From Deltaproteobacteria bacterium (GTDB lineage: Bacteria; Myxococcota_A; Polyangia; Fen-1088), in assembly GCA_033763315.1 (NCBI GenBank), contig JANRKS010000005.1, positions 205,840 to 269,839 on the forward strand: DNA of 64,000 bases. Direction: 5' to 3'. Below the pieces are notes generated by a model that saw only the letters and a list, made by a program, of their open reading frames with translations, searched no databases and had not been told where the DNA came from. Below are positions 19,321-42,404 of the stretch, in pieces (the first letter of the stretch is position 1; every line of letters starts with the position of its first letter). A program made the position numbers and the translations under genes.

Positions 19321-22300
19321 ATGCGCAACGGTCTTCAGCGACGTTCTGGGGTATGCGGACAAACAAAATGGCTGGCGTTGTTGCCATGCGCGGCGGTGCT
19401 TGCCGCCTGTGGAGGTGGCGGCGGTACGGTCAGCGTTGACGGTGGCGGCACTGTCTTGCCACCGGGGGTGGATGCCAACGAGATGGCTCCCTCGCCAGAC
19501 GAAGATGCGAATACCGTGTCGGGGATGGACGCCGACGACCGGGAATCAGGTGGCGTGGTTTCAGCACAGCGCCGCCCTCAGATGCTATCGGTTCCGCCGT
19601 CATTTGTGTTGACCACCGAAGAGTATTCGTACACCCCGAAGCATTCGTATGTGGGTGACACACAATGGAATGTTGTGTCTGCACCGCAGGGCGTAGCGGT
19701 GCGTGAACGCCGAGTGGTGGCGGATCCGGGCACGTTGCCGGCAGGCGATCACATGATCGTGATCGAAGCCAACGTGAACGACACAGTCGTGCGCCAGAGT
19801 TTCCCGTTGACCGTGGCGGAACCCGTGCAGCGCGCGGCTCGCCTCGTGACCTCCGATGAGCCCGCGCAGGTTTCCGTGCAATCGGAAGTGAGCCGCGTGC
19901 GGCGCTCGGCCGTGTCCGTGCCCGCCGGGGCCGTGGAGAACGACACAATCGTTTCCATCAACGAAGTGAGCCGCGTGCCCGCGCGTGCTGCGTTTAGCGC
20001 AGGCGGCCCCGTGGTTGACTTCGGCCCTTCAGGCACTGTTTTCCGCAAGCGCGCGACGGTCACGTTGCCACTTGATTCCACGACGATGGACCCAAACAAA
20101 GTCGGCGCTTTCACCTACAACACCAAAGCCGGTCGATGGGAGCCGGTCGAAGTTTTGGCCATAGACAAGCCCAACAAGCTTGTGATCGCGAAGGCGTCGC
20201 ACTTCTCGATGTACATGGCCGCGGAATCTGCCTTCGCCTTGGAAAGTTCCCTTGGGCTCATGCCGAACCCGCCGCGCTGTGAAGGCAATGTGTCCGCACA
20301 AAGCGTGCTTAAGGCGACAGACTCAGATGTTCCCGCCGCCTCTGTGAACAATCTTTCCGACGAGATGAAGGCGCTTCTGCCCGCTTCGGTTGACGCCGAT
20401 ATGGATGGCGTTCCTGAGAAGCAGGCCTCCGTTCGTGATCTGCTGTTATCAGGAAAGTTCCGCGGCACCTTGCGCTTTGTTTATGTGACGTCGTTGTTTG
20501 AAGGGGAGGAAGCGCAACGCGTGGAAGTGGGCCAACAGGCTTTGGCCGCCTCGCTGTTCGTCGGCGACGATGGCAAAGCATTGGTGACGCTGACCGACGC
20601 CGTTGGCAACGTGCTTGAATCCAAGACCTTCGCCGATGTGGCGAACAACTTGGCTGCCATGTGGCCGCGCCTCACGGGCGCTTCGTTGCACGCGATCTTT
20701 GCAGATGCACCCAAGACGGGCCTCAGCCTCGGCGCGCGCGTGCACATGATCTATTACCCCGACAACCGCACCTCCGAAGCGTTCGGCGTGGCGGATCTGG
20801 GGCAATCGCTGGTTGAAACGTCGCCAGGCGTCAGTGTTGATCCCATGGCGCGTGCCAACGATTACGACATCGACTGTGACCACTTGGTCGGCCAGTTCGA
20901 TGGCGATGACAGCCGGTTCAGCCCCGTTGTGAGCGCGACGCCTGAGGACGTCACGTCGATGTTCGTTGGCGAAACAGTACGCCTTTCGGCCACTGTGTTG
21001 AACGTGAGCTCGACCCCCGAAGCACAGTGGGACGCCGGTGGTGGCACGCTGACGCCAGCCGCGGATGACCCGGACGCCCGCCAATTCACGGCCTCGCAGC
21101 CGGGGCGATACTCGATCGTGTTCAAGGCAAAGTCTGGTACAACCGCCTTGTCGCACACGTTCGTGGTGGACGTGTCTGCGTTGCCGATCACCAACACGCC
21201 GCCGCAATGTTCCCCGCTTGCCAGCGCTGACACGGGCGTGGTGGGTGAGGTGGTTGCACTCAAGGCCTTGGTGCAAGACAAAGAATCACCAGCGGATGCC
21301 CTGACCGTGGAATGGGGGCTTTTGGATCCAGGCGCCGATCCCTTATCAACAGTCGATGATAAGTTGGTTGCTACAGGTCTTGTTGAAGGCGAGGGCATTG
21401 TTGGTACTTTGTCGCTAAAGAACGAGGGCACCTTCACAGTGGCCTGCCGTGCGTTCGATGGCAAAGTTTGGGGGGCGCCAGGCACCACGCGGGTGGCAGC
21501 GGTGGCCAAGGGCGTGAACCAAGCACCTACCGATGTGTTTCTGTCGCCTTCCGTGGCTGACTTGCTCGTGGGGCAAACGGTTCAACTTGCCTTGCGGGCC
21601 AGCGATCCTGAAGGCAAGCCGTTGACGTTCGTTTGGAAAGCAACGCTTGGAACAACCGGCGAGGACGTGCCGCTGTTGGGCGAGCCGTTTGCCATCGTGG
21701 GTGGCAGTGCAGTGGTGTTCACTGGTTCGCAGGCTGGCGTGTTTGAGGTCCGCGCCGATGTGTCCGATGGCGAATTCAAGGGCGAAACCCAGGTGGCGAA
21801 GATCCTGGTCCGGGAGAAGGCGCCCTCCAAGGTCGATATGGACCAAGACGGATTCTCGGCGGGCACAGGACCGGGCGAAGACTGCAACGACGCCGACGCC
21901 AAGATCAACCCCGGCGCCTTCGATATCTGTGGCAACGACGTGGATGAAAACTGCGACGGCGTGGTGTCAAAGGATGATTGCGACCGAGATGGTTGGAAGG
22001 TTTGTGCGGCGGGCGCTTCCGAGGGATGCGACTGCAACGACGGCAACGCGCAGGTGAGTCCCGCGGCGCGTGAGTTGTGTGACGGCAAAGACAACAACTG
22101 TGACGGCAAGGTGGACGAGAACTTTGGCGTGGGCCTCGCCTGTACCGTGGGCCTGGGTGCGTGCCAGAACTCGGGCAAAATGCAGTGTGCGCCAGATGGC
22201 CAACGGGCTTTGTGCGCTGGTGCGCCATTGGCGGCCAAGCCAGAGATTTGTGACGACGTTGACAACGACTGCGACCTGCTCGTTGACGAGGACAATATCT

Positions 22301-24948
22301 GCATCAAAGAGACCGCAGGTGTGTTCTTCAAGTGCGCTGTGCCTACGGCCACAGACGATCCCACGAAGTTCGCCAACTGTGGCGTGCTGGCCAATGAAGG
22401 CTTTCAGTTGCGCGACGACGGCGCGATCGTTTTGCTTTCCGCGCCCAAGGGTGCGATGTACTTCGATCCAAAGGCGGCCGCTTACTGCTGGTACAACCAA
22501 GGCACGTGGCGGCTGCGCGACTCTAAGTCGATGCTCGTGAATTTGCCCGATAGCCAAGGGCAAACGTCGAACGATGTCGTGGACATCCTGTCGCGCAGCG
22601 TTGACCGAATGACGATCGGCTTTGCGAATCCAGGGCCGAATATGGCCAAGATCCAGGACAACCGCCGCATCGCCGAAAAGACCACAGGCAAGTGCGATTT
22701 TGATCCGCGTTGCTCTTCACGGCCAGAGGTGTGTAACGGCGTTGACGACGATTGCGATGGCAAGGTCGATGAGGATCTTTCATGCCCCGCTACGTGTGAC
22801 AAAGATGGCAGAGACAACAACAACAACGGCAAGGTTGACGAGCCAGGCGAGCCTTGTGCACCCGCTTGCGACATGGACAAGGTTGACAACAACGGCAACG
22901 GGGTTGTCGATGAGGCGGGTGAGCAGTGCTCTGCCCCACCTGTGGCGTGTGACAAAGATGGCAAGGACAACAATCTGGACGGCAAGGTCGACGAGGCCGG
23001 TGAGCCGTGTTCCCCGCCATGCGACAAGGATCGCATCGACAACAACGGCAATGGCGTGGTGGATGAGTCTGGTGAGGTGTGTGGCCCTGCCGCGGCTTGT
23101 GACAAAGATGGCAGGGACAACAACAACAACGGCAAGGTTGATGAACCAGGTGAGCCTTGTGCACCGGCTTGCGACATGGACAAGGTTGACAACAATGGCA
23201 ACGGCGTTGTGGACGAAACGGGCGAGGCCTGTGGCCCAGCGGTGGGTTGTGACAAGGACGGCCGCGACAACAATGGCGACGGCAAGATCGATGAGCCCGG
23301 CGAGCTATGCGGCGGAACGTCTGTGGAGTGCGACCGAGACGGGCGTGACAACAACAATGACGGCCGCATTGATGAACTGGGCGAGCCCTGCGCGCCGCCG
23401 TGCGACGCTGACAAAATCGACAACAACGGCAACGGCATGGTGGATGAGGCGGGCGAAATGTGCGGCCCCGTTACAGCCTGCGACAAAGACGGACGCGACA
23501 ACAACAACAACGGCAAGGTTGACGAGCCAGGCGAGCCTTGCGCACCCGCATGCGACATGGATCGCATAGACAACAATGGCAACGGCACTGTGGACGAAGC
23601 GGCCGAGCCATGTGGTCCCGCGGTTTCGTGTGACAAGGACGGCAAAGACAACAACGGCAACGGCATGGTGGATGAAGCTGGCGAAGCTTGTGGTCCCGCT
23701 GTCGCGTGCGAAAAGGACGGCCGCGATAACAACAACGACGGACGAGTTGATGAAGCCGGTGAGCCGTGTGCACCACCATGCGACGCTGACAAGATCGACA
23801 ACAACGGCAACGGCATGGTCGATGAAGCCGGCGAGGCTTGTGGCCCACCTGTTTCGTGTGACAAGGACGGCAAAGACAACAACGGCAACGGCATGGTGGA
23901 TGAAGCCGGCGAAGCTTGTGGTCCCGCTGTCTCATGCGAAAAGGACGGCCGCGATAACAACAACGACGGTCGAGTTGATGAAGCCGGTGAGCCGTGTGCA
24001 CCACCATGCGATGCTGACAAGATCGACAACAACAGCGACGGTCGAGTTGATGAAGCCGGCGAGGCTTGTGGCCCGGCCGTGTCGTGCGACAAGGACGGCC
24101 GCGACAACAACGGCAACGGGATGGTGGATGAAGCCGGCGAAGCTTGTGGCCCACCTGTGTCGTGCGACAAAGATGGTAAAGACAACAACGGCAACGGCAT
24201 GGTCGATGAAGCTGGCGAGCCGTGTTCTGGCCCTGTGAGCTGCGACGCTGACAAGATCGACAACAACGGCAACGGCATGGTCGATGAAATCGGCGAGGCC
24301 TGTGGTCCGGCCGTGTCGTGTGACAAGGACGGCAAAGACAACAACGGCAACGGCATGGTTGATGAGCCAGGCGAGCCGTGTGTTGGCCCACCTGTGTCGT
24401 GTGACAAGGACGGCAAAGACAACAACGGCAACGGCATGGTGGATGAAGCCGGCGAGCCCTGTTCTGGCCCTGTCACGTGCGAGGCGGATCGCATCGACAA
24501 CAACGGCAACGGGATGGTGGACGAACCGGGTGAGCCATGCAATGCGCCCCAATACTGTGACAAAGATGGCAAGGACAACAACGGCAACGGCATGGTCGAT
24601 GAAGCCGGTGAAGCTTGTGGTCCGGCCGTATCGTGCGACAAGGACGACAAAGACAACAACGGCAACGGCATGGTGGATGAGCCAGGCGAGCCGTGTGTTG
24701 GTCCACCCGTGTCGTGCGACAAAGATGGTAAAGACAACAACAACAACGGCATGGTCGATGAAGCCGGCGAGCCATGCAATGCGCCCCAATACTGCGACAA
24801 GGACGGCATCGACAACAACGGCAACGGGATGGTGGACGAACCTGGCGAGCCATGCAATTCGCCTCAATACTGCGACAAGGACGGCAAAGACAACAACGGC
24901 AACGGCACGGTCGATGAAGCCGGAGAGCTTTGCGGTCCCATCAGCTAA
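19321..24948 (+). CDS. Giant (1875 aa) surface lipoprotein: Ig-like/beta-sandwich N-terminal half, canonical MopE-type metal-binding motifs, then 28 tandem Cys-Asp-Asn-rich MopE-like/Ca-binding-like modules
   Basis: Signal plus lipobox 'WLALLPCAAVLAACGGGGG'. Canonical PF11617-like units 'CNDADAKINPGAFDICGNDVDENCDG', 'CDGKDNNCDGKVDE' and 'CDDVDNDCDLLVDED' (aa ~840-1000). From nt 22795 there are 28 repeats of 'CDKDG[KR]DNN[GN]NGMVDE[AP]GE[AP]C' alternating with 'CD[AM]DKIDNNGNG' variants. Confidence 0.8.
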   Translation: MRNGLQRRSGVCGQTKWLALLPCAAVLAACGGGGGTVSVDGGGTVLPPGVDANEMAPSPDEDANTVSGMDADDRESGGVVSAQRRPQMLSVPPSFVLTTEEYSYTPKHSYVGDTQWNVVSAPQGVAVRERRVVADPGTLPAGDHMIVIEANVNDTVVRQSFPLTVAEPVQRAARLVTSDEPAQVSVQSEVSRVRRSAVSVPAGAVENDTIVSINEVSRVPARAAFSAGGPVVDFGPSGTVFRKRATVTLPLDSTTMDPNKVGAFTYNTKAGRWEPVEVLAIDKPNKLVIAKASHFSMYMAAESAFALESSLGLMPNPPRCEGNVSAQSVLKATDSDVPAASVNNLSDEMKALLPASVDADMDGVPEKQASVRDLLLSGKFRGTLRFVYVTSLFEGEEAQRVEVGQQALAASLFVGDDGKALVTLTDAVGNVLESKTFADVANNLAAMWPRLTGASLHAIFADAPKTGLSLGARVHMIYYPDNRTSEAFGVADLGQSLVETSPGVSVDPMARANDYDIDCDHLVGQFDGDDSRFSPVVSATPEDVTSMFVGETVRLSATVLNVSSTPEAQWDAGGGTLTPAADDPDARQFTASQPGRYSIVFKAKSGTTALSHTFVVDVSALPITNTPPQCSPLASADTGVVGEVVALKALVQDKESPADALTVEWGLLDPGADPLSTVDDKLVATGLVEGEGIVGTLSLKNEGTFTVACRAFDGKVWGAPGTTRVAAVAKGVNQAPTDVFLSPSVADLLVGQTVQLALRASDPEGKPLTFVWKATLGTTGEDVPLLGEPFAIVGGSAVVFTGSQAGVFEVRADVSDGEFKGETQVAKILVREKAPSKVDMDQDGFSAGTGPGEDCNDADAKINPGAFDICGNDVDENCDGVVSKDDCDRDGWKVCAAGASEGCDCNDGNAQVSPAARELCDGKDNNCDGKVDENFGVGLACTVGLGACQNSGKMQCAPDGQRALCAGAPLAAKPEICDDVDNDCDLLVDEDNICIKETAGVFFKCAVPTATDDPTKFANCGVLANEGFQLRDDGAIVLLSAPKGAMYFDPKAAAYCWYNQGTWRLRDSKSMLVNLPDSQGQTSNDVVDILSRSVDRMTIGFANPGPNMAKIQDNRRIAEKTTGKCDFDPRCSSRPEVCNGVDDDCDGKVDEDLSCPATCDKDGRDNNNNGKVDEPGEPCAPACDMDKVDNNGNGVVDEAGEQCSAPPVACDKDGKDNNLDGKVDEAGEPCSPPCDKDRIDNNGNGVVDESGEVCGPAAACDKDGRDNNNNGKVDEPGEPCAPACDMDKVDNNGNGVVDETGEACGPAVGCDKDGRDNNGDGKIDEPGELCGGTSVECDRDGRDNNNDGRIDELGEPCAPPCDADKIDNNGNGMVDEAGEMCGPVTACDKDGRDNNNNGKVDEPGEPCAPACDMDRIDNNGNGTVDEAAEPCGPAVSCDKDGKDNNGNGMVDEAGEACGPAVACEKDGRDNNNDGRVDEAGEPCAPPCDADKIDNNGNGMVDEAGEACGPPVSCDKDGKDNNGNGMVDEAGEACGPAVSCEKDGRDNNNDGRVDEAGEPCAPPCDADKIDNNSDGRVDEAGEACGPAVSCDKDGRDNNGNGMVDEAGEACGPPVSCDKDGKDNNGNGMVDEAGEPCSGPVSCDADKIDNNGNGMVDEIGEACGPAVSCDKDGKDNNGNGMVDEPGEPCVGPPVSCDKDGKDNNGNGMVDEAGEPCSGPVTCEADRIDNNGNGMVDEPGEPCNAPQYCDKDGKDNNGNGMVDEAGEACGPAVSCDKDDKDNNGNGMVDEPGEPCVGPPVSCDKDGKDNNNNGMVDEAGEPCNAPQYCDKDGIDNNGNGMVDEPGEPCNSPQYCDKDGKDNNGNGTVDEAGELCGPIS
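22795..24945 (+). repeat. Coding tandem repeat array, about 28 units of 66-75 bp (higher-order ~132-141-bp AB periodicity), with near-identical copies toward the 3' end
   Basis: Repeated DNA strings such as 'gacaaggacggcaaagacaacaacggcaacggcatggtggatgaagccggcga' recur many times in frame. The reverse strand yields long artefactual ORFs. Confidence 0.9.
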
Positions 24949-25040: not shown

Positions 25041-25613
25041 ATGCGGCACCTTCGTGCGTGTTTTGGATTGCGTCATCTGCGCGTTTTGGCGTTCGGGTGT
25101 CTCGTGCGTTCATTGGCCTCACCAGCACACGCGGCTGACGCCCCTCCTGCTGCCGCGGGTTCCGAAGCGCTTGGCGGATCGGAAGCCGCGCGTGAGCTGT
25201 GGGCGGCGCAGACCGAGTTCGAGCGCCAACGGAAGAGCCCCGCGCTTGGGTTTGCGCTTGAGCTTGCGTTGCCGTCGCTGGGCAACTTCTACGCGCGTGA
25301 ACCGGAAGAAGGCACGTTGACGTTGACGGGCCTATTGATTGGCGGCTTCTTCTTGGCTGATGGTTACGGCTTGGTGTGCGAAACGTTTAAGCACGACGAC
25401 TCTGGCTGCAAACGCAAAACGTTCAGTCTGGTGCAAGGCTGGATCTTCGTGGTGGGCAGCCGTCTGTATGGCCTGACCAGCGCGCCCATGAATGTTGCGC
25501 GCTTCAATCGCGCTTTGCGTGCGCGCCTGGGCGTCGATGCCGCCTGGTCAATGAATGTGGTGCCATGGTTGGGCCCGCGGAACGCGGGCCTCGCGTTGGC
25601 GCTACGGTTCTGA
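25041..25613 (+). CDS. Hypothetical secreted/membrane protein
   Basis: Signal peptide 'MRHLRACFGLRHLRVLAFGCLVRSLASPAHA' and one internal hydrophobic segment 'LTLTGLLIGGFFLADGYGLV'. No domain recognised. Convergent with the giant ATPase gene. Confidence 0.35.
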   Translation: MRHLRACFGLRHLRVLAFGCLVRSLASPAHAADAPPAAAGSEALGGSEAARELWAAQTEFERQRKSPALGFALELALPSLGNFYAREPEEGTLTLTGLLIGGFFLADGYGLVCETFKHDDSGCKRKTFSLVQGWIFVVGSRLYGLTSAPMNVARFNRALRARLGVDAAWSMNVVPWLGPRNAGLALALRF

Positions 25614-25646: not shown

Positions 25647-28600
25647 CTACCGCACGTCGTCTGGCTGGCGTAACGCAGCGAGCAGCTGCTCGATCTTCTG
25701 CTCCAACGCACGACGATCTTCTAGGCTGCGAGCCGCCGCGCGCACAAGCGGGATCAGCGTGCGTTCAACGATCGCCACTTGCTGCCCCAACGCTTCTTCA
25801 ACGCCGCGAGGCGCCTCGGTTTGCACGGTGAGATTCACGGGGCGCTTCTCCATCGCATGCAAGATGGCGTCGAGGCGGCCCAGGTGATCGGCCAGCCAAT
25901 GCGGCAACCCATCGCCATCTTTCTTTTCCGTGGCGGTGGTTGTGGCACGCGGCTTTTCAAGCGCGCTGCGAATGCCTTGCAGTTGGCCGCCCAGATCTGA
26001 AAGTTGCCCCGTGACCCGGGTGACGGGATCGTCTTCGGCTCCACCCAGTTTTTTCACGCGAACAAATTCGTGCTTGATGTCGTTCCACCGCTTGGCTTGC
26101 GTGGGCGATAGGGTGCCGCGCAACTCCGCCAGCTTTAGCAAATTGGTTTCCGCGCCCGTGGTCAACGTTTGTGCCTCACCCACGTAGTGATCCTCAATCA
26201 GCCGATCCAGCTCCTCGGGCGTCATCGCGCCCACAACCTTCTCGGCAAGCTTGCTCATGTTGCGGTAACTGCCTTGCAGCTTGAACGGAGGCTCCGTGCG
26301 GAACTTATCGTCGGTGGAAGCAGACGCGATGTATTGCTGGTTCACCCGCAGCAGGGTTTTCTGCACCACCATCAGGCGCTCAAGCACGGCCTTGATGTCC
26401 GCAAGTTCCACCGCCGCATAACCGTGGCTTAGATCCGTGGTGGCGAGCACCTCGCCTTGCGCCATGCGGATCAATTTATAAATGTCGGCTTGGTCGCGCG
26501 TGGCAAGCGGCGCCAAAACGGGGTTTGATGTGATTGCGTTTTCAATGTAGCTCAGTGCAAAAACATCGTCTTTGCCCGAGAGAATGTCACCCAGATTGTA
26601 GGTGTCGGCACGGTTCGCGAGCATGTCGGGAATTTGGAAGCGATCTCCCGATTCGGTGTAGGGGTTGCCCGCCATCACCACGCAAAAACGTTTGCCGCGC
26701 ATATCATACGTGCGCGTGCGGCCCTTCCACACGCCTTCGATGCGGCGTTGAGCGTCGCACAGCGAAATGAACTTTTGCAGTAGCTCCGGGTGCGTGTGCT
26801 GGATGTCGTCGAGATAAAGCATCACGTTGTTGCCCATCTCCAACGCCAAGTTGATCTTCTCCACCTCTTGGCGCGCGGTGGCGTTCGGCGCTTCTTCGGG
26901 ATCGAGCGATCGCACCTCGTGCCCAAGCGAAGGGCCATTGACCTTCATGAACACCAGACCCAGGCGGCTGGCCACATACTCCATCAACGTGGTTTTGCCG
27001 TATCCCGGTGGGGAGATCACCAGCAGCAAACCCATCAGATCGGTGCGCTTCTTTTCGCCGGCGGCACCCATCTGTTTGGCGAGGTTGTCGCCCACGAGCG
27101 GCAAATAGACTTCGTTGACCAAGCGGTTGCGCACGAAAGACGTCAACACGCGCGGTTTGAACTCGTCTAGCCGCAACCGCGTACGCTCGCGTGCAAGCAA
27201 GGCCTGCCTTTGTTGCTTGTAATCGGCAAAGCCCGGCACGCGCTCGCTCACAAACCGTTGCAGCCGTGGCAAGAATTCATCAAGGCGCAGGCGTAAGGTG
27301 CCGTTCTCGATGCGCGGGTGGTTGCCCAACAAACCCGTGACTTCCGTCATCGTCCGCGCTGTCGAGGTGCCGCGGTCGAGCGTGCGTTCGGTGAGCAAGA
27401 GCGCCGCGACCTCTGGTGCAAAATGGGTTGCGTGGGCGTCTTGGTCGCCGGGGTTGGGGCGCGCCACGAACGCATCGATCCACGCGCGTGCCACGGCCAA
27501 GCGCGCCGCCAAATCGTCTTGCAGTGAGCGAAGGTCTTCTTCGAAGGCCAAACGTTGACCGCTGCGATCCAAATGCGCGGCGAAAGCCTCGCGAATGCTA
27601 AACGCCTCATGACTGCACACGAACCGAGGTTGCGTGGCCGCCAACTCTTCGATGAGGTACCTCGCTGCTGCAGGTGCCACGTCGGTCGCGCCGCGATCAG
27701 GCAGTTTCGCGGCGAAGGTGGCCACGGCGGTTTGCAGCTCTTGCGCCAGCTCCTCGTGCGCGCGCGTGGGACCCAACAGCGCGCGCAACCGTGCCAGGCT
27801 TCCGGCCTGCCGGTGCCACTTGTCGAGCGCCGAGGCTTCCACGCCTTCGGCCCAAAACAACGTGGCCAACGCCCGCGCCTGCGGCGAAAACCGCAGCAAC
27901 CCGGCCGCTTGTCGCAGATCCAGCAGCTTTTCGAGAATCGCCGTGGCATCCGCATCGTGCACGCCGCGTTCGTAGCCCTCGTCGTAACGTGAGGCCGCCG
28001 CTTTGCGCACGTGCTCTTGCAGCCCGCCTGGCGACAACCGCGCCTCTTGCAGCGCTGCAACAGACAGATTGCCTTGCCCCGCTTCCGCCGCAAACAGCAT
28101 ACTCGCCGCCAGGTATTCGCCGCGGTAGACATCGCTGGTCTCCGAAGCCAACGTTTGGCTCCAGTAGGGGCGCGTGGCGGCGAACGCCGTGTCCGTCACC
28201 GCTTCACGATAGTCAGTCCCGGTGACGGCAAGGGCCATCGCTTCACCTTCAGCCTGCGGCACCAGCGTCAGGTCCAGCGGCTGCGTGTTGACCGTGAACT
28301 TGTGTTTGCCTAGACGAATGACATTGTCGCCGTCTTCGTAAAGATCCAGCTTGTCCTTCAGGCCACGCAGCGCTTCTTGTTGGGCGCTTTTGACCTTCGA
28401 GCCGAGTTCGTCGGCGCGCGTGCCTTCGCCCAGCTCAACCAGGCGCACAGCGAGCTCGCGCACCTTCAAGATCATCGGGTCCGCGGCGAAGTAACCGTTC
28501 AATTCGTCCACGCTCTTGAGCGTTTGTGCGCGCCGACCCACGCCCTGCAAGATGCGTTCGGCGGCGGACATCAAATTCGCCGCGCGCCGTTGCCGCTCGT

Positions 28601-30905
28601 CGAGGAGACGCTGCTTTTTTTGGTTTAGCGCTTCGTAAACCTCTTCGCGCTTTCCCGCGAGCACCGTCAGGTATTCGTCGAATTCAGAGAAGCGCGACTC
28701 CAGCTCCTCCATCTGCACCATCAAACGCGAAAGCTGCTCGTCACACGCTTGCGGTGTTTCGGCCATGCCCACCGCGCTGCTCACGCTCTGTCCGAACAGT
28801 TTGAATTGCGCCGCGAACTCAGCCTCGCCTTCGCCTTTGAGCAAGGTTTTGCGACGCGCTTCCACCGTGGCGCGCAGACGCCCCCACTGCCCAAAGGCTT
28901 CCGAGATGCGCTCTAAAATATTGGTGCGCACGGTGGGATCCTCCACCTTCAACCCACCCACCACTTCTGAAAGCACGTTGAGGCCGGCGTTGAGGGCCTC
29001 CGCTTTTTCGGCCAGTGGCGCCAACGCGCGCGTCTTTTCGACGCTGGCCACCTGATCCACAAGCTGATTGATCTCCGCCAACACAGGCGTGAACGCATCG
29101 TCTTTCAGCAGGAATCCAACGGCGGCGCCGCTGACACGTTCGAACGCTTGCACGCTGGCGGCTTCAAGCGCTTCCACCCCCTGCACCTGTATATACCGCA
29201 CCTCTTTGAGGCCGATCAGGTGACCACGTTGGGCGCGTAACTTTCCAAGCGCCTCCATAAACGGGGCCACGGTGGTCCAGGTATCGGGCCGCAACGTTTT
29301 GAACAGCGCTTCTTGTTGCTCCTGCGCTTCGCTGAATTGTTTCTGCGCCTGCGCCTGCAGCGCCTGCACCTTCTCGAATTCATCCACCACCAGCTCGGCG
29401 GTGTGGCGAATGGCCTGCAGCGGCGCCAGCAAGTGGCTGCCATCGCTGAGCAGCTGGGCGTCGCCCAACCAGTGGTGCAGATCCATCGTTCGCCCCACGT
29501 GCGCGATGAGATCTTCATAGATGCGGCGGGTGGGCTGCGTGTCCTGCACCAAGCGGCGCACCGTCAAGGCATCGGAAATGCCGCGCACCAAAGCGGCGTT
29601 GCCGATCTTGCCCAACGGCCCCGTGACTTTCGGGGCGCGCGCTGCGGCTTCATCGGAAAGAAACGGCGTGGTCCACACTTGCATCGGATGCACGCGCGTG
29701 GGCTCTTGCGATTCCGCGCGGAACACCATCATGCGGCCGTCTTCGAACAAGCTGTAACCGTGGCACCGAATGGGCGTCGATACGCGTTTTTCGATCAGGT
29801 TGTAGACCAGCAGGATGTAAAGCCCATCGTGCCGCCGGTGAAACACATAAAGCACGTCTTCGCCATTCGGCGCGCGCACGCTGCGCTCGAACTCAAGATC
29901 GGAAAAATCGCCCTCAAAGACCTTGTGTTGGCCGTCTTGCAGGTAATAGCCGCCCGGAAAGATCACGCCGTGATCTTCAGGCAGTTCGACGCACGAATGC
30001 CCGATGGCGTCGATGCGCACCACTTTTTGCGATCGCGTGGCAAACACCAAATAGCGAAACGCCTTTTCATTAAACGGCAGGACCTTCAGCAGCACCAACG
30101 TGCCGACTTTTGCGTAGAAGATGTCGGCGTCGTCCAACGCTTGGCGTGGATCGTCCACCGGCTCGCTGTAAATGCCTTCGCCGTCTTCGGTGTTGTTTTC
30201 CACCTTCACGGTTAACGTGCCGCTCACGGTCTCCACGAACAGCGTGTTCAGAATGTTCGCGTGCGGGTGCGTGCCACTGACGTGTTGATCGCGCGTCACC
30301 TCCACCCATTCGAAGGTGTGTTGGGGCGGAAAAACAAAATCACGCTCACCCCGGTTGTCGATGTAGGAAGGCACGCCATCACGGCCCACGCCCCAGCGAA
30401 ACACGCGCAGATCCGTGGCGTTGGGCCCCATGCGGAACACGGCCAAGAGCTTGGTGTCGGTGCGCGATAACTTCGTGAGCCGCGCGTGCTTGTAATACTT
30501 ATAAAGTTCGGCAAAGTCGCTTGCGAACCGCGGCTCGCGAATCAGCGCGGCGCTGGCGTCGTTGCTGGCCACAGGCACCAGATCCAGCTCGCCTTCCACG
30601 GGCTCGAAGCGATGCACGCTGAACACGTCGGCCACGGTGGTTTCGGTCTTGAGGCCCAAAAACACGTTGTAGCCAAACAGCAAATCGTTGCCCACCGTTA
30701 CGATGTCGGCGGGCACACAGTTGTTTTCGGTGCGCGCGCGGTGGGTGGAAGCCAGCACCAATTCAGTGCTGCCAAAAGCCTGCTTACGCGCTTGATTCAA
30801 CGCCTCGGCGATGCGGCCAAGCGTGCCCGCCTGTTCCACCAAGCGGGCGCGGATCACCTCATAGCCATCGCCGATGGCGGCGGGCGGTTGTTCTGATGCG
30901 GCCAT
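25647..30905 (-). CDS. Giant (1752 aa) multidomain protein with an AAA_5 (MoxR/dynein-related) ATPase domain; uncharacterised beta-rich N-terminal domain, long alpha-helical/coiled-coil middle and C-terminal regions
   Basis: Walker A 'LLLVISPPGYGKTTLMEYV', Walker B 'NVMLYLDDIQH', and 'FCVVMAGNPYTESGDRFQIPDMLANRADTY' (AAA_5 sensor/Arg-finger region) at about aa 1290-1480 (nt ~26460-27040). The first ~480 aa are beta-rich; several hundred residues are heptad-like. The ATG lies 12 nt after the flotillin stop. Confidence 0.8.
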   Translation of the reverse strand: MAASEQPPAAIGDGYEVIRARLVEQAGTLGRIAEALNQARKQAFGSTELVLASTHRARTENNCVPADIVTVGNDLLFGYNVFLGLKTETTVADVFSVHRFEPVEGELDLVPVASNDASAALIREPRFASDFAELYKYYKHARLTKLSRTDTKLLAVFRMGPNATDLRVFRWGVGRDGVPSYIDNRGERDFVFPPQHTFEWVEVTRDQHVSGTHPHANILNTLFVETVSGTLTVKVENNTEDGEGIYSEPVDDPRQALDDADIFYAKVGTLVLLKVLPFNEKAFRYLVFATRSQKVVRIDAIGHSCVELPEDHGVIFPGGYYLQDGQHKVFEGDFSDLEFERSVRAPNGEDVLYVFHRRHDGLYILLVYNLIEKRVSTPIRCHGYSLFEDGRMMVFRAESQEPTRVHPMQVWTTPFLSDEAAARAPKVTGPLGKIGNAALVRGISDALTVRRLVQDTQPTRRIYEDLIAHVGRTMDLHHWLGDAQLLSDGSHLLAPLQAIRHTAELVVDEFEKVQALQAQAQKQFSEAQEQQEALFKTLRPDTWTTVAPFMEALGKLRAQRGHLIGLKEVRYIQVQGVEALEAASVQAFERVSGAAVGFLLKDDAFTPVLAEINQLVDQVASVEKTRALAPLAEKAEALNAGLNVLSEVVGGLKVEDPTVRTNILERISEAFGQWGRLRATVEARRKTLLKGEGEAEFAAQFKLFGQSVSSAVGMAETPQACDEQLSRLMVQMEELESRFSEFDEYLTVLAGKREEVYEALNQKKQRLLDERQRRAANLMSAAERILQGVGRRAQTLKSVDELNGYFAADPMILKVRELAVRLVELGEGTRADELGSKVKSAQQEALRGLKDKLDLYEDGDNVIRLGKHKFTVNTQPLDLTLVPQAEGEAMALAVTGTDYREAVTDTAFAATRPYWSQTLASETSDVYRGEYLAASMLFAAEAGQGNLSVAALQEARLSPGGLQEHVRKAAASRYDEGYERGVHDADATAILEKLLDLRQAAGLLRFSPQARALATLFWAEGVEASALDKWHRQAGSLARLRALLGPTRAHEELAQELQTAVATFAAKLPDRGATDVAPAAARYLIEELAATQPRFVCSHEAFSIREAFAAHLDRSGQRLAFEEDLRSLQDDLAARLAVARAWIDAFVARPNPGDQDAHATHFAPEVAALLLTERTLDRGTSTARTMTEVTGLLGNHPRIENGTLRLRLDEFLPRLQRFVSERVPGFADYKQQRQALLARERTRLRLDEFKPRVLTSFVRNRLVNEVYLPLVGDNLAKQMGAAGEKKRTDLMGLLLVISPPGYGKTTLMEYVASRLGLVFMKVNGPSLGHEVRSLDPEEAPNATARQEVEKINLALEMGNNVMLYLDDIQHTHPELLQKFISLCDAQRRIEGVWKGRTRTYDMRGKRFCVVMAGNPYTESGDRFQIPDMLANRADTYNLGDILSGKDDVFALSYIENAITSNPVLAPLATRDQADIYKLIRMAQGEVLATTDLSHGYAAVELADIKAVLERLMVVQKTLLRVNQQYIASASTDDKFRTEPPFKLQGSYRNMSKLAEKVVGAMTPEELDRLIEDHYVGEAQTLTTGAETNLLKLAELRGTLSPTQAKRWNDIKHEFVRVKKLGGAEDDPVTRVTGQLSDLGGQLQGIRSALEKPRATTTATEKKDGDGLPHWLADHLGRLDAILHAMEKRPVNLTVQTEAPRGVEEALGQQVAIVERTLIPLVRAAARSLEDRRALEQKIEQLLAALRQPDDVR

Positions 30906-30917
30906 GGGCAGCCGGCC

Positions 30918-33083
30918 TTACTCGAGCCCCAGATCCTGCGCTTGCTTGACCAAACGCTCAAGCGCCGTGCGTTTGCTGCCATCAGAGGCCGAGATGACGT
31001 GGTTTAGCGCGGCCACAATGCTGAGGTTCTTGATGGCATCGGTGCCCACAGCGGGGCGGGTGAGCACGTCTTTGATGTCGGCGCGCAAGCTGCTTTGCCC
31101 CGAAGTGTATTCGCCCGCCAAGTGCGCCAAAGTTTCGCTGTTGGCCAGGGCGCCATCCACCGCGTGCCCCAAAGACACGGCCTTGAAGAATTTATCGAGG
31201 AACTGGCCATCACCACCCACGATGTTGATCTTGGCTTCGGCCAGGGCCTTGCCCATGACTTCGGCCTGTTGTTCGGACATCGACACGCGGGTTTTGAGTG
31301 TTTGCAGCGCCACTTCGGTTTGTTTTTCAAGCCGCAGCCGAAACTCTTCGTGTTCACGAGCGTCGCCTTTGAGCAGCTGCATGGCTTCGGTCTTTTGCGC
31401 CAAACCATGTGCTTCGGCTTCCATCCGCGCTCGAATCGCCGTGGCGTCAGCTGCGCCTGTGCGTTCGGTGGCCGCGGCGTTGGCTTCTTTGACCCGCACC
31501 GTGGCCAGACCCTGGGCTTCCACGCCCGCGGCCTCGGCCGACAACATCAATCGCTTGGCGTCCGCCTCGGCTTGGCCCAGCTTCGCCACCGCGCCCGCTT
31601 CGGCCTCGCGGCCTTTCGCTTGCGCCTGCATTTGCTCCATCGTCACGCGCGCCTGTGCCATGCCCACCTTTTCGGTGGCCACCGCGTCGGCTTCCTTCAC
31701 GCGCACCTGCGCCAAGCCTTCGGCCGCGGCCTCGGCCTGCACACCTTCGGCGATGCGCAGCTTCGCGCGTGCCGTGCGATCCGCGGCTTCGAGATCGGCA
31801 TCCGCCTTGGTGATCGCCTGTTTGGCTTCGTATTTGGCCACCTCGGTCTGCGCCTCAGCCTGCTTGAGCTTAAGCACCACTTGCTCCTGCGCTTTGCCCT
31901 CGGCGGTAATCACATGCGCGTCCTTCTGGCGTTTGGCTTCAGCCAGCAGGCGAATGTCTTTGATGCGCTCTTCTTCTTCCGCCACCTGCTTTTCAACGGC
32001 GATGCGCCCCGACACCACATCGGCGATCACTTTGCGTTCCACTTCCAGCGCTTTTTCCTTCTCGATGCGCTGCAGTTCCACTTGACGCTCGCGCGAGATG
32101 GCTTCAAGGTCGCGATCCTTGGTGACGCGTTCGTTTTCCACGGCCACCACGCGCTCGCGGTTCTTCGCGGCCACTTCCACCTGCCGTTTGCGGTTTTCAT
32201 CCGCGATCGCAACTTCTTCTTCCTGGCGAATGCGAGCCACCTCGGCCTTTTGCTTTTCTTCGGCCTGTACGCGCATGGTTTCAGCTTGCTCACGCGCTTG
32301 AATGCTCAAAATCTCACGCTGCTGGCGCGCCTGCGCGTCGGCGCGTTGCCGCTCCAGCTCAAAGATGGCCTCAGCCGATTCCACGTTCTTTTTCGTGATG
32401 GCCTTGAGCTCCTCTTGCTTTAGATCGTTCGTGCTCACCTTCTGGGCGGCGGTGATTTCCGTGATCTTGCGGATGCCTTGCGCGTCCAAGATGTTGCTGG
32501 GATCCAGCACTTCCAGCGGCGTTTGCTCGAGGAAATCGATGGCGGCGTCGTCAAGCACATAACCATTGAGATCTCGGCCAATGACGTCGATGATCTGGTC
32601 GCGGAACTCATCGCGCTTTGTGTAAAGCTCTTCAAACTCCAAGCGCTTGCCCACAGTCTTGAGCGCTTCGGAAAACTTCGCCACGAACAGCTGTTCAAGC
32701 GTGTCGGCGTCGGAGGCGCGCACGCACCCGATCGACTGCGCGACCTTCAGGACGTCTTCGGCCGTTTTGTTAACACGCACGAAAAATGTGACACGAATGT
32801 CGGCGCGGATGTTGTCTTTGCAGATCAACCCTTCTTTGCCCTTGCGGTCGATTTCGATGGTGCGCACCGAGATGTCCATGACCTCAGCCCGGTGCAAAAC
32901 GGGAATCACCACCGCGCCCGTGAAGGTGACCGTGGGCTCACTTTTGAGCGTGTTGACGATAAGCGCCCGGCCTTGATCCACCTTGCGGTAGAACCGCGTG
33001 ACGAATAAACCCACGGCGAAGAGCAGCACAAAAGCGCCCCCGCCGATCAACAACGCCGCTTGCAAAGTTCCGTTCAGTTCCAT
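30918..33083 (-). CDS. Flotillin-family SPFH/Band 7 protein (YqiK-like), 721 aa with an expanded EA-rich coiled-coil
   Basis: N-terminal TM plus 'FYRKVDQGRALIVNT...AVVIPVLHRAEVMDISVRTIEI...GLICKDNIRADIRVTFFVRVNKTAEDVLKVAQSIG' (SPFH), and 'LFVAKFSEALKTVGKRLEFEELYTKRDEF'. Long Glu/Ala-rich coiled-coil with internal duplications ('GLAQVRVKEADAVATE' and 'GLATVRVKEANAAATE'). Confidence 0.85.
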   Translation of the reverse strand: MELNGTLQAALLIGGGAFVLLFAVGLFVTRFYRKVDQGRALIVNTLKSEPTVTFTGAVVIPVLHRAEVMDISVRTIEIDRKGKEGLICKDNIRADIRVTFFVRVNKTAEDVLKVAQSIGCVRASDADTLEQLFVAKFSEALKTVGKRLEFEELYTKRDEFRDQIIDVIGRDLNGYVLDDAAIDFLEQTPLEVLDPSNILDAQGIRKITEITAAQKVSTNDLKQEELKAITKKNVESAEAIFELERQRADAQARQQREILSIQAREQAETMRVQAEEKQKAEVARIRQEEEVAIADENRKRQVEVAAKNRERVVAVENERVTKDRDLEAISRERQVELQRIEKEKALEVERKVIADVVSGRIAVEKQVAEEEERIKDIRLLAEAKRQKDAHVITAEGKAQEQVVLKLKQAEAQTEVAKYEAKQAITKADADLEAADRTARAKLRIAEGVQAEAAAEGLAQVRVKEADAVATEKVGMAQARVTMEQMQAQAKGREAEAGAVAKLGQAEADAKRLMLSAEAAGVEAQGLATVRVKEANAAATERTGAADATAIRARMEAEAHGLAQKTEAMQLLKGDAREHEEFRLRLEKQTEVALQTLKTRVSMSEQQAEVMGKALAEAKINIVGGDGQFLDKFFKAVSLGHAVDGALANSETLAHLAGEYTSGQSSLRADIKDVLTRPAVGTDAIKNLSIVAALNHVISASDGSKRTALERLVKQAQDLGLE

Positions 33084-33684
33084 CGTTAATCCCGTCCGTG
33101 TTTCGTGCCGGTGCTACGCCCGTCCATTTATCGGCGTTCTTGGCGCCAAGTTGTGGGAAAAAATCATTCCTGCGGAGCGAATTTGAACTTGGAGGCGGGG
33201 CTCCGAAGCCCCCGACACCGAGTCGGCCGCCAGACAGGGCGAAGGCTGATATCGAAGGACGGGTGGCGGCTGCGGTTGGGACGTGGTCCCGGCGCATGTT
33301 GTCAGATTGTGACGTGCGGCCCCAGCGCGGTTTGCTTCACTTGACCGATGACGGCGCAAAGGTGTTTGTTGTTGGTCCTTATGTCGGCTTGTGGCGATGC
33401 CGCCGGTGTCGCAGTGACGTCGCCATCCACGGACGCGCAGAGACGGGGGGGCCTCGCGCTGATCTACCGAGCGCCCACCGCGCCCACCGCACGAAGGGCG
33501 CCAGCCAGTTTGGAACGCGCCGAACAACACGCCGAAAACTTCTCTAACGAAGGCTTTGTTGAGGTTCCGCAACAAACCGGCGGAGCGATCCTAGATTTGT
33601 CGGGCCGGTTCAGACACCAATCTAGGTTGCAAATCACGCCAAGCGGGTCGACTGCAATCGGGTGCGAACGCGAAAGTCATCTAC

Positions 33685-34923
33685 ATGCGAAGTGAAGGCG
33701 CGAGGTTGGCGATCCTGGCTGTGCTCACGCCGCTCTTGCAATCCCCATTTGCTGACGCATACGCCGCGACAATCACCATCGTGAACCGCGATGGGCCCGG
33801 CGAAGGCTTTAACGATCCGTCCCCGTTTACGGCGGCGGGCGACAACGTGGCTGCGACGTTGGGGCAGGCGCGGCTCAATGCCTTTTCTTACGCGGCGAAG
33901 CTTTGGGGCGCCCGGTTGGTGAGCAAGGTGGAGATCAAAGTGGACGCCCAGATGAACCCGCTTGACTGTGGATTAACCTATGCGGTGATCGGCAACGCGG
34001 GCCCCAACACCGTCGATCGCGATTTTCCCCGCAACGACCCTGCTTATGCACCACCGCGTCCCAACACTTGGTACGCGCAGGCCGTGGCGAACGCCATTGC
34101 CGGCTTCGATCGAACAGCAACCCTTGCGGAGATCTCAGCTGAATTTAACAGCTCGTTGGGCGCCGGAACCTGCGCCCCCACAACAAGCTGGTACTTGGGC
34201 CTTGATGGGCGCGGCGCTTCCAACCAATTGGATCTTGTATCGGTGGTGTTCCACGAATTGGGTCATGGCCTTGGCTTTTCATCCTTCCTTGACCAATCTA
34301 GCGGGGCGAAACTCTCCGGTCGTGACGACGCCTTTACCAATGGCCTCATGTTGGAGGGAGCCGTGCCGGCCGCATTGTCAGCGATGACCGACGCACAACG
34401 ACTGTCTGCCATGACAGGCGATCCGAATCTGACTTGGTCCGGCAACGCGACGGCCGTCTACCTGCCTCGCCCTACGGCCGGACAAACGAATGGACGCGTC
34501 CGATTGCATGCCCCGAACCCGGTCGAGTTCGGATCTTCTGTGGGGCACTTCAGCGCCGCGCTTGCGCCGAACGAACTCATGGAGCCCTATTACAACGGTG
34601 CCAACCACAAGATGGGGTTGGCTTTGCCCGTTTTGAACGACGTCGGTTGGTTGGTGATTCCCGCCACCGTGCCTGACCACTGTCTAAGCGCGCTCACCGC
34701 CAGCAGCGATCTCGACAACGACGGCGTGGTGGACGTCTGCGACAATTGCCCCCAGGTGAGCAATCCGTCGCAAAGCGATGCGGACGCCAATGGCCAAGGC
34801 GACGCGTGCCCTTCCTCGAACGTGAAAAGCGTCCCCGCCACCGATCCTTGGCATCTGGGTCTGCTCGGCTTCGGGTTGCTGTGGCTCGGTATGGTTTCTC
34901 GTGGCCGTCGGTTCAGCGCCTGA
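33685..34923 (+). CDS. Secreted HExxH zinc metalloprotease with C-terminal thrombospondin-type-3-like Ca-binding repeat and PEP-CTERM/MYXO-CTERM-like anchoring tail
   Basis: Signal peptide; 'VVFHELGHGLGFSSF' (HExxH); 'DLDNDGVVDVCDNCPQVSNPSQSDADANGQGDAC' (TSP3-like); terminal 'PATDPWHLGLLGFGLLWLGMVSRGRRFSA' (hydrophobic segment plus basic tail). Confidence 0.65.
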   Translation: MRSEGARLAILAVLTPLLQSPFADAYAATITIVNRDGPGEGFNDPSPFTAAGDNVAATLGQARLNAFSYAAKLWGARLVSKVEIKVDAQMNPLDCGLTYAVIGNAGPNTVDRDFPRNDPAYAPPRPNTWYAQAVANAIAGFDRTATLAEISAEFNSSLGAGTCAPTTSWYLGLDGRGASNQLDLVSVVFHELGHGLGFSSFLDQSSGAKLSGRDDAFTNGLMLEGAVPAALSAMTDAQRLSAMTGDPNLTWSGNATAVYLPRPTAGQTNGRVRLHAPNPVEFGSSVGHFSAALAPNELMEPYYNGANHKMGLALPVLNDVGWLVIPATVPDHCLSALTASSDLDNDGVVDVCDNCPQVSNPSQSDADANGQGDACPSSNVKSVPATDPWHLGLLGFGLLWLGMVSRGRRFSA

Positions 34924-34954: not shown

Positions 34955-35674
34955 TCACGCCGGGTTGTTCGTCGCCAGCCCCGCGTCCAAGCGCTCCACC
35001 TCGTAGGCGTGCAGCTCAGCATTCCATGACACCAGCACCACCCGGTCGCCGCGCGCCAGGCCGTTGCCGGTTGCCGCACGCACCTCCACGATGAGCCCAG
35101 CGCCGCCGTCGTCGACCTTGGCTTGCCCAAAGCGCGCGTCCACCTTTCCGGTGGAGATGACACCCATCTTGCCGATCACCTGCGCCCGCGTGGGTGCCTC
35201 ATGCACCTTGAACAGCGGCCGCAGGGGGCGGCAAAGAAGTCCCGCGATGGGTAACGACAGCACAAAAACCACAACCATCAACAGGCTGCCGCGCAGAAGT
35301 GGCAACGCACCGGTCACCTTGATTGCGAAGTAACAGCCCCAAAAATTCAGCAGCACCAATGCGGTGCCGAGCACCGTGAGGGGCACCTGCCGCAAACCCA
35401 GTTTCCCCAGCAAGCCCGCGGCATCGCTGATGTGCACGTGATGGGTGTCCCCCCCGACGGCCGTGGCGGCCGCATGTGCACCGTCAGCCGCGGCGTGTGC
35501 CGCATGAAATACAGCATCAGCGGCGTGTGCCGAGGCATCTGTCGCACCATGCATCCCATCCACATCCAGGGCGCCGCCGGCCACCAGCAACCAGTAGAGG
35601 ATTACAAAGCCCAGAGCCACCGTCCACAACACGGTTGGATACACGAGCGACGCCGCGAACAAGGTCATCAACAT
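34955..35674 (-). CDS. NfeD/YqiJ-like membrane protein (DUF1449-type: N-terminal TM segments plus C-terminal OB-fold)
   Basis: 3-4 TM helices, a His/Ala-rich loop, and C-terminal 'GKMGVISTGKVDARFGQAKVDDGGAGLIVEVRAATGNGLARGDRVVLVS' typical of the NfeD OB-fold that partners SPFH proteins. Confidence 0.6.
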   Translation of the reverse strand: MLMTLFAASLVYPTVLWTVALGFVILYWLLVAGGALDVDGMHGATDASAHAADAVFHAAHAAADGAHAAATAVGGDTHHVHISDAAGLLGKLGLRQVPLTVLGTALVLLNFWGCYFAIKVTGALPLLRGSLLMVVVFVLSLPIAGLLCRPLRPLFKVHEAPTRAQVIGKMGVISTGKVDARFGQAKVDDGGAGLIVEVRAATGNGLARGDRVVLVSWNAELHAYEVERLDAGLATNNPA

Positions 35675-37742: not shown

Positions 37743-38819
37743 ATGCCGAGCAAAGGGTTTTCACCGGGCGATGTTCTGGGCGGTAAATACCGCCTGACGG
37801 AACTCGTGGGCGAGGGCGGCATGGGCAGCGTCTGGTCCGCGCGCCATCTGTTGCTCGACAGAGACTGTGCCGTGAAACTTTTGTCCCGCAATGGCGGCAG
37901 CCGCCAAAGCCAAGCTGAACGTTTCACACGCGAAGCCAAGATCGCCGCTTCGCTGCGGCACAAAAACGTCGTGGATCTCTTCGATTTCGGCGAAGCCGAG
38001 TCGGGGGACTTCTTCATGGTGATGGAGTGGCTCGAAGGGGAGTCGCTGTCAACGCGCCTGGGTCGCGCGCCCACCTTGCCCTTACGCGAGCTGATTGGGA
38101 TCTTGTCTGAAGCGCTGGCGGGGCTAGCCGCCGTGCACGAGCGCGGCATCGTTCATCGTGATTTGAAACCCGAGAACATCTTCTTGGCCAAGGAAGATGG
38201 CGAGGTGATACCGAAGCTGCTCGACTTCGGCGTGTCACGCTTGCGGCGCGGCCTCGAAGGCCCATCGTTGACGGGCACGGGCAGCACGGTGGGCACGCCC
38301 CATTACATGTCTTCGGAGCAGGTGCGCGGCGCTCGCGATCTGGATGGTCGTGCGGATCTTTACAGCATCGGCGTGATCCTGTTTCGCAGCGTGATGGCGC
38401 GGTTTCCGTTTGAGGCCGAAGAGTTGACCGACCTGCTTTTGCAATTGGCCAATCAACCCGCGCCACGTTTGGTGCCCTTGCGGCTTGAAACGGGTGAAGG
38501 CTTATCCGCCGTAATCGATCGCGCGCTTTCGCGCGACCGCAATGACCGTTTTAGCAACGCTTACGAAATGAGGCGCGCGCTGTTGGCCACCTTGGATGCC
38601 GTGTCCCCCACAGTGCCGTGCCAATGGCGCCGCAGCGAAAGCGAATTGCCCTTTGATTCGCCCACGCAAAATTCGCCTTATCCTTGGCGCCACACACCCG
38701 GCGCTGATGCGGCCGGCCTCACCGCACGCCCTTTGTGGCTCAACCAGTGGCGCCGCTTGATACCGTTGGGTTTGGCGGCCTTGGTGGTGGGCGCCGCGTG
38801 GTTGCTCACGTCCCGGTAA
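37743..38819 (+). CDS. Membrane-anchored Ser/Thr protein kinase (Hanks type)
   Basis: 'GEGGMGSVWSA' (Gly loop), 'AVK' (Lys), 'VHRDLKPENIFL' (catalytic loop), 'DFGVSR', 'GTPHYMSSEQ', and a C-terminal TM 'LIPLGLAALVVGAAWLL'. Confidence 0.9.
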   Translation: MPSKGFSPGDVLGGKYRLTELVGEGGMGSVWSARHLLLDRDCAVKLLSRNGGSRQSQAERFTREAKIAASLRHKNVVDLFDFGEAESGDFFMVMEWLEGESLSTRLGRAPTLPLRELIGILSEALAGLAAVHERGIVHRDLKPENIFLAKEDGEVIPKLLDFGVSRLRRGLEGPSLTGTGSTVGTPHYMSSEQVRGARDLDGRADLYSIGVILFRSVMARFPFEAEELTDLLLQLANQPAPRLVPLRLETGEGLSAVIDRALSRDRNDRFSNAYEMRRALLATLDAVSPTVPCQWRRSESELPFDSPTQNSPYPWRHTPGADAAGLTARPLWLNQWRRLIPLGLAALVVGAAWLLTSR

Positions 38820-42295: not shown

Positions 42296-42404
42296 TACGC
42301 CGCCCGAGGTGGGGTGCGTGCGTGTGCCTTGGCCGCGCCGCGCTCTAGGTGATTGTTGCTTGATTGGCGCGCGAGCCGTGCGCCTTGTGAACCTTGGGTG
42401 CTGC

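Follow-up and report, generated by a model that had tools for sequence, protein, structure and literature searches.

Why should a gene for a giant enzyme named for DNA repair lie 12 nucleotides (nt) behind a flotillin gene? This question is raised by a stretch of 64,000 nt from a Deltaproteobacteria bacterium (assembly GCA_033763315.1, contig JANRKS010000005.1, positions 205,840 to 269,839; the whole stretch is called the window below), in which a flotillin gene (30918..33083, minus strand) is followed on the same strand by the gene for a giant soluble ATPase (25647..30905, minus strand). A preliminary description of the locus had given these coordinates, the 12-nt gap and the lengths of the two proteins, 721 and 1752 amino acids (aa), exactly as we found them. 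It had also presented the pair as a candidate undescribed module, which was not borne out, because Ravi et al. (mSystems 2024, PMC11237479; bioRxiv preprint 2020) had already listed the same operon together with an 'abbreviated' form of it. Since the association of flotillin and ATPase was published in 2020 and 2024 as a comparative-genomics observation, it is no discovery of ours.

Our results suggest that the window locus is very probably a member of this catalogued abbreviated operon type, composed of a YqiJ-like protein, a YqiK-type flotillin and a MoxR-class ATPase. We infer further, with a probability of about 0.5, that the three genes constitute a membrane module in which the ATPase would be an ATP-driven remodeller of the flotillin-YqiJ scaffold, acting in envelope maintenance. 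What is added here is the correction of the name 'DNA repair ATPase', the placement of the enzyme in the MoxR class, and the finding that it has one architecture and one fixed partner.

Linkage of the ATPase and flotillin genes

Relatives were found by a scan of one genome per species, which gave at least 575 loci; 80 of these were taken, and four annotated loci from other phyla were added. Linkage to flotillin was counted over the 74 loci with sufficient upstream DNA, the presence of a directly upstream YqiJ-like gene over 69 eligible loci, and motifs, AAA+ core identity and accessory genes over 86 loci. In 71/74 loci a flotillin-like gene immediately precedes the ATPase gene in the same orientation, a linkage that rules out chance or incidental adjacency. 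The preliminary description had let its case hang on conserved linkage of this kind between flotillin and the homologues of the ATPase, and the count supports it decisively. At least seven phyla are represented: Myxococcota, Pseudomonadota (Gammaproteobacteria), Planctomycetota, Bacteroidota, Actinomycetota, Deinococcota and Acidobacteriota.

In the relatives, a median of about 61 nt separates the flotillin stop from the ATPase start, and the distance is 30 nt or less in 22/71 of them. These mostly short gaps fit co-transcription of the two genes in an operon. The translational coupling that had been claimed for the window was not supported by this comparison: tight coupling of the two genes is not conserved across the family, and no clear Shine-Dalgarno sequence was seen in the 12-nt junction (30906..30917, minus strand), which reads GGCCGGCTGCCC and stands between the flotillin stop codon and the ATPase start codon in the sequence CTCGAG TAA GGCCGGCTGCCC ATG. 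Note that a promoter and terminator scan of the locus returned the same counts as shuffled sequence (the GC content of the window is about 0.59-0.63), and therefore the operon boundaries were not set by that scan.

The YqiJ-like third gene

Clustering of the flanking open reading frames (ORFs) revealed that 65 loci encode, upstream of the flotillin, a membrane protein of about 240 aa. This YqiJ-like gene was directly upstream in 62/69 loci, and in five of the seven non-adjacent cases it was nearby, either displaced or inverted. In support of the assignment, the hidden Markov model (HMM) of this third-gene family matched E. coli YqiJ over positions 41-226, which is near full length and with the same layout, at a modest score of 24 bits. 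Moreover, an orthologue from Hymenobacter carries the annotation DUF1449, the YqiJ family.

In the window, the third-gene family was matched at 34955-35674 on the minus strand (tblastn, E 2e-26). The 239-aa product has an N-terminal transmembrane (TM) segment, an acidic and His-rich linker, further TM segments and a C-terminal OB-like domain at about residues 160-230 (nt 34985-35197, minus strand). It is 53% identical (E 3e-82) to its counterpart in locus L086, the closest relative with context, in which the three genes are contiguous and the YqiJ-like gene stands directly upstream of the flotillin gene.

It had been remarked that the usual NfeD/YqiJ partner was not adjacent to the window flotillin. 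This is literally so, but the partner is present and only displaced, since its gene was found on the same strand, 1.9 kb upstream of the flotillin gene. One gene stands in between, encoding a secreted-looking protein of 412 aa with a TSP3 (thrombospondin type-3) repeat (33685-34923, plus strand), and about 600 nt of non-coding DNA (33084-33684) lie upstream of the flotillin gene. Because the yqiJ-like and flotillin genes are contiguous in L086, the gene at 33685-34923 looks like a lineage-specific insertion that split the operon.

The flotillin

Single-sequence scans were empty for both membrane proteins: the window flotillin had no match in Pfam (including Band_7 and Flot), NCBIfam or PADLOC, and the YqiJ-like protein likewise none in any of the three. 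For this reason their homology was shown through E. coli YqiK and YqiJ and through family profiles. E. coli YqiK aligned with the window flotillin over residues 17-429 at 27% identity (BLASTP, E 5.5e-36), in agreement with the earlier description of the protein as YqiK-like, and the structures of human flotillin-1 (9l3g, 9bq2) matched it at E 4e-4 (phmmer). Band_7 was detected in 2/16 members of the flotillin family, the homologues carry the names 'flotillin family protein' or 'SPFH domain-containing protein', and the family profile found nothing among PDB sequences at E <= 1e-3. Judged by homology, then, the 721-aa protein is a YqiK-type flotillin, an SPFH-domain homologue of the known flotillins.

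The protein has one hydrophobic segment, the N-terminal membrane anchor at residues 5-32 (nt 32988-33071, minus strand), followed by the SPFH region, which starts near residue 39 (nt ~32439-32969, minus strand), an EA-rich coiled coil and a conserved C-terminal tail (residues 600-721). The composition of residues 216-600 is 20% Ala and 16% Glu. An internal duplication of this EA-rich part, already noted in the preliminary description, was scored by local alignment with a shuffle control: the copies at residues 421-489 (nt 31617-31823) and 492-558 (nt 31410-31610, both minus strand) aligned with a score of 107, against 61.5 +/- 7.9 for the shuffles. A BLASTP self-comparison of the flotillin did not pick up this repeat.

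In two relatives, L017 (6278-7081, 7455-9689) and L023 (4674-5210, 7763-9898), a further, incomplete flotillin-like match precedes the main flotillin gene; it may stem from a local duplication or represent another SPFH paralogue of the operon.

The giant ATPase

An identical ATPase protein is recorded at NCBI as 'MAG: DNA repair ATPase [Deltaproteobacteria bacterium]' (MAG, metagenome-assembled genome), and its best relatives are from Myxococcota. No TM segment was predicted in it. Towards the C-terminus it carries a AAA+ module at about residues 1260-1620 (26046..27128, minus strand), with a single contiguous AAA+ P-loop at residues ~1290-1450 and a weak Pfam match, above threshold, to AAA_5 at residues 1295-1417. 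Since both sequence and profile searches against PDB gave matches confined to the Walker A / P-loop region, the class of the enzyme was taken from fold comparison, in which the best matches of the AAA+ module were NorQ and CbbQ, at a sequence identity of only 15-17%. Based on these folds, the module is assigned to the MoxR / AAA_5 class, consistent with the MoxR/dynein-type core seen in the preliminary description. It includes Walker A (PPGYGKTT, nt 26988-27011), Walker B (MLYLDDIQH, nt 26796-26822), the pre-sensor-1 beta-hairpin (nt 26703-26744), sensor 1 (AGNP, nt 26661-26675) and the arginine of ANRAD (nt 26604-26618), all on the minus strand. An aromatic-hydrophobic-Gly pore-loop motif was not seen by eye between Walker A and Walker B.

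The AAA+ core is at least 76.6% identical in all 86 loci, across phyla, and the whole proteins are 43-60% identical. The Walker A motif GYGKTT is kept in 84/86 loci and the Walker B motif [LVI]DD[IV]QH in 86/86; sensor 1 ([AS]GNP) and the arginine of [AS]NR[AS]D are likewise kept in all 86.

The N-terminal part begins with a long helix (residues 15-44), behind which stands a domain of residues 50-412 (29670..30758, minus strand) that an AlphaFold2 model (pLDDT 88.5) builds from about 28 strands. Every significant match of this domain in a Foldseek search against PDB was a beta-propeller, with low TM-scores of 0.15-0.32, and the model thus suggests a divergent beta-propeller-like domain. This domain forms the core of Pfam DUF3686, which covers residues 30-478 (nt 29472-30818, minus strand; E 1.8e-199). 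There follow a helical-bundle, spectrin-repeat-like region (residues 430-700; 28806..29618, minus strand), inside which Pfam DUF7902 is found at residues 603-686 (nt 28848-29099, minus strand), and a conserved central block at about residues 860-1110 (27576..28328, minus strand). The latter is marked by near-invariant alignment columns, including the motifs HKFTVNTQPLDLT at residue 868 and RYDEGYERGVHDADA at residue 973, seen in two alignments; it had no domain match in the Pfam scan and could be a binding or a catalytic domain. The family defined by the N-terminal domain is compact, with 722 clusters at 50% identity among 1.84 billion proteins. Its complete members are all of about 1,590-2,036 aa with this domain at the N-terminus, so that the family has a single architecture.

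Accessory genes and distribution

A PspA/IM30 gene, together with a YjfI/DUF2170 or Tir-chaperone gene, stands ahead of the trio in 21/86 loci, which belong to Gammaproteobacteria and Bacteroidota. Genes often found after the trio encode Zn-ribbon (14 loci), rhomboid (16 loci) and PLD-family (7 loci) proteins. The module is widespread, and its distribution is both vertical and horizontal. The ATPase had no match in 50,697 phage records. Among 72,556 'plasmid' records it was present in 13, most of which are megaplasmids, chromids or mislabelled chromosomes; on these counts the idea of a mobile or phage-borne element was rejected.

One of the megaplasmids is pQBR103 of P. fluorescens SBW25 (L085, NC_009444.1, 86425-103539). 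There the trio comes directly after genes of the yjfKLMC type (rhomboid, DUF2491, DUF350, DUF1190 and glutathionylspermidine-synthase-family), which in Ravi et al. form the polyamine-linked class of PspA operons, and a gene of the MvaT/MvaU family follows the trio.

Proposed function and alternatives

How could the three proteins work together? MoxR ATPases are remodelling chaperones. Membrane cages of SPFH proteins with NfeD partners are cited in PMC13086221 and PMC13000311, the examples being QmcA-YbbJ, HflK/C and the flotillin 44-mer, and in B. subtilis PspA depends on an SPFH protein to reach the membrane (PMC8581546). From these three lines we derive the following model. The flotillin, anchored by its N-terminus and helped by the YqiJ-like partner, would assemble into an oligomeric SPFH scaffold or cage at the inner membrane, on its cytoplasmic side. 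The ATPase would dock on this scaffold by its N-terminal propeller-like domain, with the spectrin-like helical rods acting as a spacer. Upon membrane stress, ATP hydrolysis by the MoxR-type ring would remodel the scaffold or its protein contents, by assembly, disassembly or opening.

Besides the linkage, the phyletic range, the contiguous trio of L086, the folds, the single architecture, the strongly conserved AAA+ core with its intact motifs and the role suggested by Ravi et al., two further observations speak for such a module: a soluble ATPase without TM segments is paired with two membrane-protein partners, flotillin and the YqiJ-like protein, and the linkage to PspA-type envelope-stress genes is recurrent. 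That the ATPase remodels the flotillin assembly directly, with the physical interaction, substrate and trigger that this would entail, is a proposal to which we give somewhat less than an even chance. It is possible, and a more tentative suggestion, that the enzyme is a dedicated ATP-driven machine for the assembly and disassembly of flotillin (SPFH) cages, a MoxR-class functional analogue of Vps4. To our knowledge, SPFH proteins have no known assembly or disassembly enzyme, whatever the domain of life; if this suggestion were true, the flotillin microdomains of these bacteria would be actively turned over upon membrane damage.

Several points weigh against the proposed remodelling module. The ATPase gene occurs without an upstream flotillin gene in L013, a MAG of Polyangiaceae, and in L058 and L062, both Methyloprofundus contigs; no flotillin-like or YqiJ-like gene was found in these three loci within the available upstream DNA (about 3-10 kb), and therefore the two genes need not be adjacent. 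Many pairs of flotillin and YqiJ do without a giant ATPase, E. coli yqiJK among them. The window has no PspA: neither PspA nor YjfI had a match anywhere in the 64 kb (tblastn), and the window therefore carries an abbreviated form of the operon. The characterised MoxR ATPases (MoxR, RavA, NorQ, CbbQ) normally pair with a partner containing a VWA domain (MIDAS), yet no such partner was found in the window or the four annotated loci, the VWA domain being missing from Pfam scans of the ATPase and 20 neighbouring window ORFs, from the annotated loci and from the conserved flank clusters. The Walker B motif is of the form hhhhDD (LDDIQH), not DE, and is invariant across phyla in the 86 loci; we take it to resemble the DnaA-type 'DDIQ' Walker B. 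Lastly, residues ~700-1250 of the ATPase, about 550 residues that hold the conserved block and have no assigned fold, could carry the real activity.

Some of this evidence can be read in another way. The flotillin-YqiJ scaffold might be a landing platform on which the ATPase, like NorQ or CbbQ, acts on other clients or on PspA polymers, for instance by maturing membrane protein complexes, inserting cofactors into them or extracting them, and leaves the flotillin assembly itself as it is. NorQ and CbbQ, the closest folds, do remodel specific client enzymes, binding sites for clients could lie in the propeller-like domain and in the central block, which is large and conserved, and PspA is co-encoded in 21/86 loci; a chaperone-like role for membrane-linked complexes was also proposed by Ravi et al. 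(PMC11237479). However, flotillin and YqiJ-like genes are the only ones conserved nearby, so no other candidate client is at hand, PspA is missing from most loci as well as from the window, and no VWA adaptor was found. Of the alternatives we give this one the most weight, but consider it rather unlikely.

An anti-phage or conflict system is improbable. In such a system, for example one of membrane-based abortive infection, flotillin and YqiJ would sense envelope perturbation and the ATPase would be the effector or switch. The patchy distribution over many phyla, which suggests horizontal transfer, would suit this idea, as would the occurrence on megaplasmids such as pQBR103 and the PLD-family hydrolase linked in 7 loci, but the phage and plasmid counts given above speak against it, and so do the neighbourhoods, which vary by lineage and whose recurring linked genes are those of envelope stress and not of defence. 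The PADLOC similarities that could be cited in its favour (IetA, mad8) are very weak and restricted to the P-loop: the flotillin has no PADLOC match, and those of the ATPase are at the level of P-loop or coiled coil (E 0.004-0.04), none of them significant. The neighbours in the window are not defence genes either, the sole PADLOC match among them being a generic Ser/Thr kinase. The membrane rather than defence context favoured by the preliminary description thus agrees with the PspA, YjfI, rhomboid and PLD genes of the relatives and with the absence of the ATPase from the phage records.

Finally, that the large protein is an SMC/SbcC/RecN-like DNA repair ATPase beside which the flotillin is irrelevant is hardly credible and was rejected on the MoxR-type P-loop and the domain scans: it draws on database names (Pfam DUF3686, PF12458, 'ATPase involved in DNA repair'; NCBI 'DNA repair ATPase') and on a weak coiled-coil-type similarity to LmuB (E 0.007), whereas the protein has a single internal MoxR-type AAA+ module instead of a split ABC/SMC head, Pfam and NCBIfam revealed no SMC/ABC family, nuclease or DNA-binding domain, the conserved neighbours are membrane proteins, and a literature search gave no support for a repair role. 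The name, spread over thousands of proteins without supporting domain or context evidence, is probably a misnomer, and may have arisen from coiled-coil similarity to SbcC/SMC-type proteins.

Other genes of the window

The remaining neighbours in the window are unrelated to the trio: a peptidase U32, a giant protein with MopE repeats, an ammonium transporter, a Ser/Thr kinase, a Na/H exchanger and RND efflux genes. The earlier statement that restriction-modification and integrase genes are absent nearby is borne out for the genes that were scanned, from ~10.6 to 48.5 kb. The giant protein (1875 aa; 19321-24948, plus strand) contains three putative metal-binding motifs of the MopE type, and a sulfatase-domain protein (12044-14230, minus strand) has a motif of the same type. 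The gene of the 1875-aa protein converges on the 3' end of the ATPase gene, with an ORF of 190 aa (25041-25613) that has no family match in between. The Ser/Thr protein kinase (37743-38819, plus strand) was matched by many PADLOC 'PD-T4-6' models, with E down to 3e-81; because such kinases are abundant in Myxococcota, these matches probably reflect generic kinase-domain similarity and not a defence gene. Further away lies a Cus-like heavy-metal RND efflux operon (42309-48549, plus strand), whose parts are an OEP outer-membrane factor, a membrane-fusion protein with HlyD_D23 and HMBD, and a pump of the AcrB/CusA type.

Significance

An extremely conserved soluble AAA+ enzyme that is almost always encoded beside a flotillin-YqiJ pair offers an experimental handle on the function of bacterial flotillins and on the way in which SPFH cages are opened, loaded or recycled. 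Carriers of the module that lend themselves to experiments include Pseudomonas, Cellvibrio, Vibrio, Proteus, Streptomyces, Myxococcota and the pQBR103 megaplasmid. Known so far from comparative genomics, the system is a good entry point into flotillin biology. In the literature search we found no experimental work on the operon, no paper mentioning DUF3686 or PF12458 and no relevant work on MoxR and flotillin or on a flotillin with a DNA repair ATPase; the giant ATPase is not covered in a P. aeruginosa SPFH survey (PMC13086221) or in an ESCRT survey (PMC10936438).

Comparison with known systems

In concept, the module resembles HflK/C-FtsH and Vps4-ESCRT-III, in which a membrane scaffold (SPFH cage or ESCRT-III/PspA polymer) is joined by a AAA+ machine, an analogy drawn in the preliminary description and by Ravi et al. 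(PMC11237479). FtsH and Vps4, however, are AAA enzymes of the classical clade with pore loops, FtsH having a protease domain in addition, whereas the window ATPase is soluble and of the MoxR class, with neither a protease nor a MIT domain. NorQ and CbbQ have a length of ~250-270 residues and separate VWA partners (NorD and CbbO, respectively); the window ATPase differs from them in bearing its one AAA+ module near the C-terminus of 1752 aa, in its propeller-like domain and helical rods, and in the DD of its Walker B. The AAA_5 modules of dynein and midasin show a more distant likeness.

With E. coli yqiJK and B. subtilis yuaF-floT, the window locus shares an NfeD/YqiJ-type gene just upstream of the gene for an anchored, EA-rich SPFH flotillin. 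Unlike the window, E. coli K-12 has no giant ATPase after yqiK, and its YqiK has 553 aa, compared to the 721 aa of the window flotillin, which is too divergent for Pfam Band_7/Flot.

Ravi et al. (PMC11237479) described a CesT/Tir-PspA dyad with a three-gene operon in the order YqiJ/YuaF (a 3TM protein), Band-7+coiled-coil+flotillin and beta-propeller+coiled-coil+AAA-ATPase, to which a PLD hydrolase is sometimes added and of which the PspA-less abbreviated form is widespread. The same gene order is given in their Table S3 for Dokdonia donghaensis (ANH61663.1 neighbourhood), and they suggest a chaperone-like or membrane-dynamics role in assembling membrane-linked complexes. Their paper, which contains no experiments, left the class of the AAA+ domain unassigned, and its MoxR-like class was shown by the fold comparison made here. 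The window lacks the CesT/Tir-PspA dyad and the PLD gene of the full operon, a form that we also recovered independently in 21 loci, and its yqiJ-like gene is parted from the flotillin gene by the opposite-strand gene at 33685-34923. The same three core genes and the same ATPase domains (propeller, coiled coil and AAA+) are present, with PLD an optional addition, and the window genes at 34955-35674, 30918-33083 and 25647-30905, all on the minus strand, match the order of the abbreviated form.

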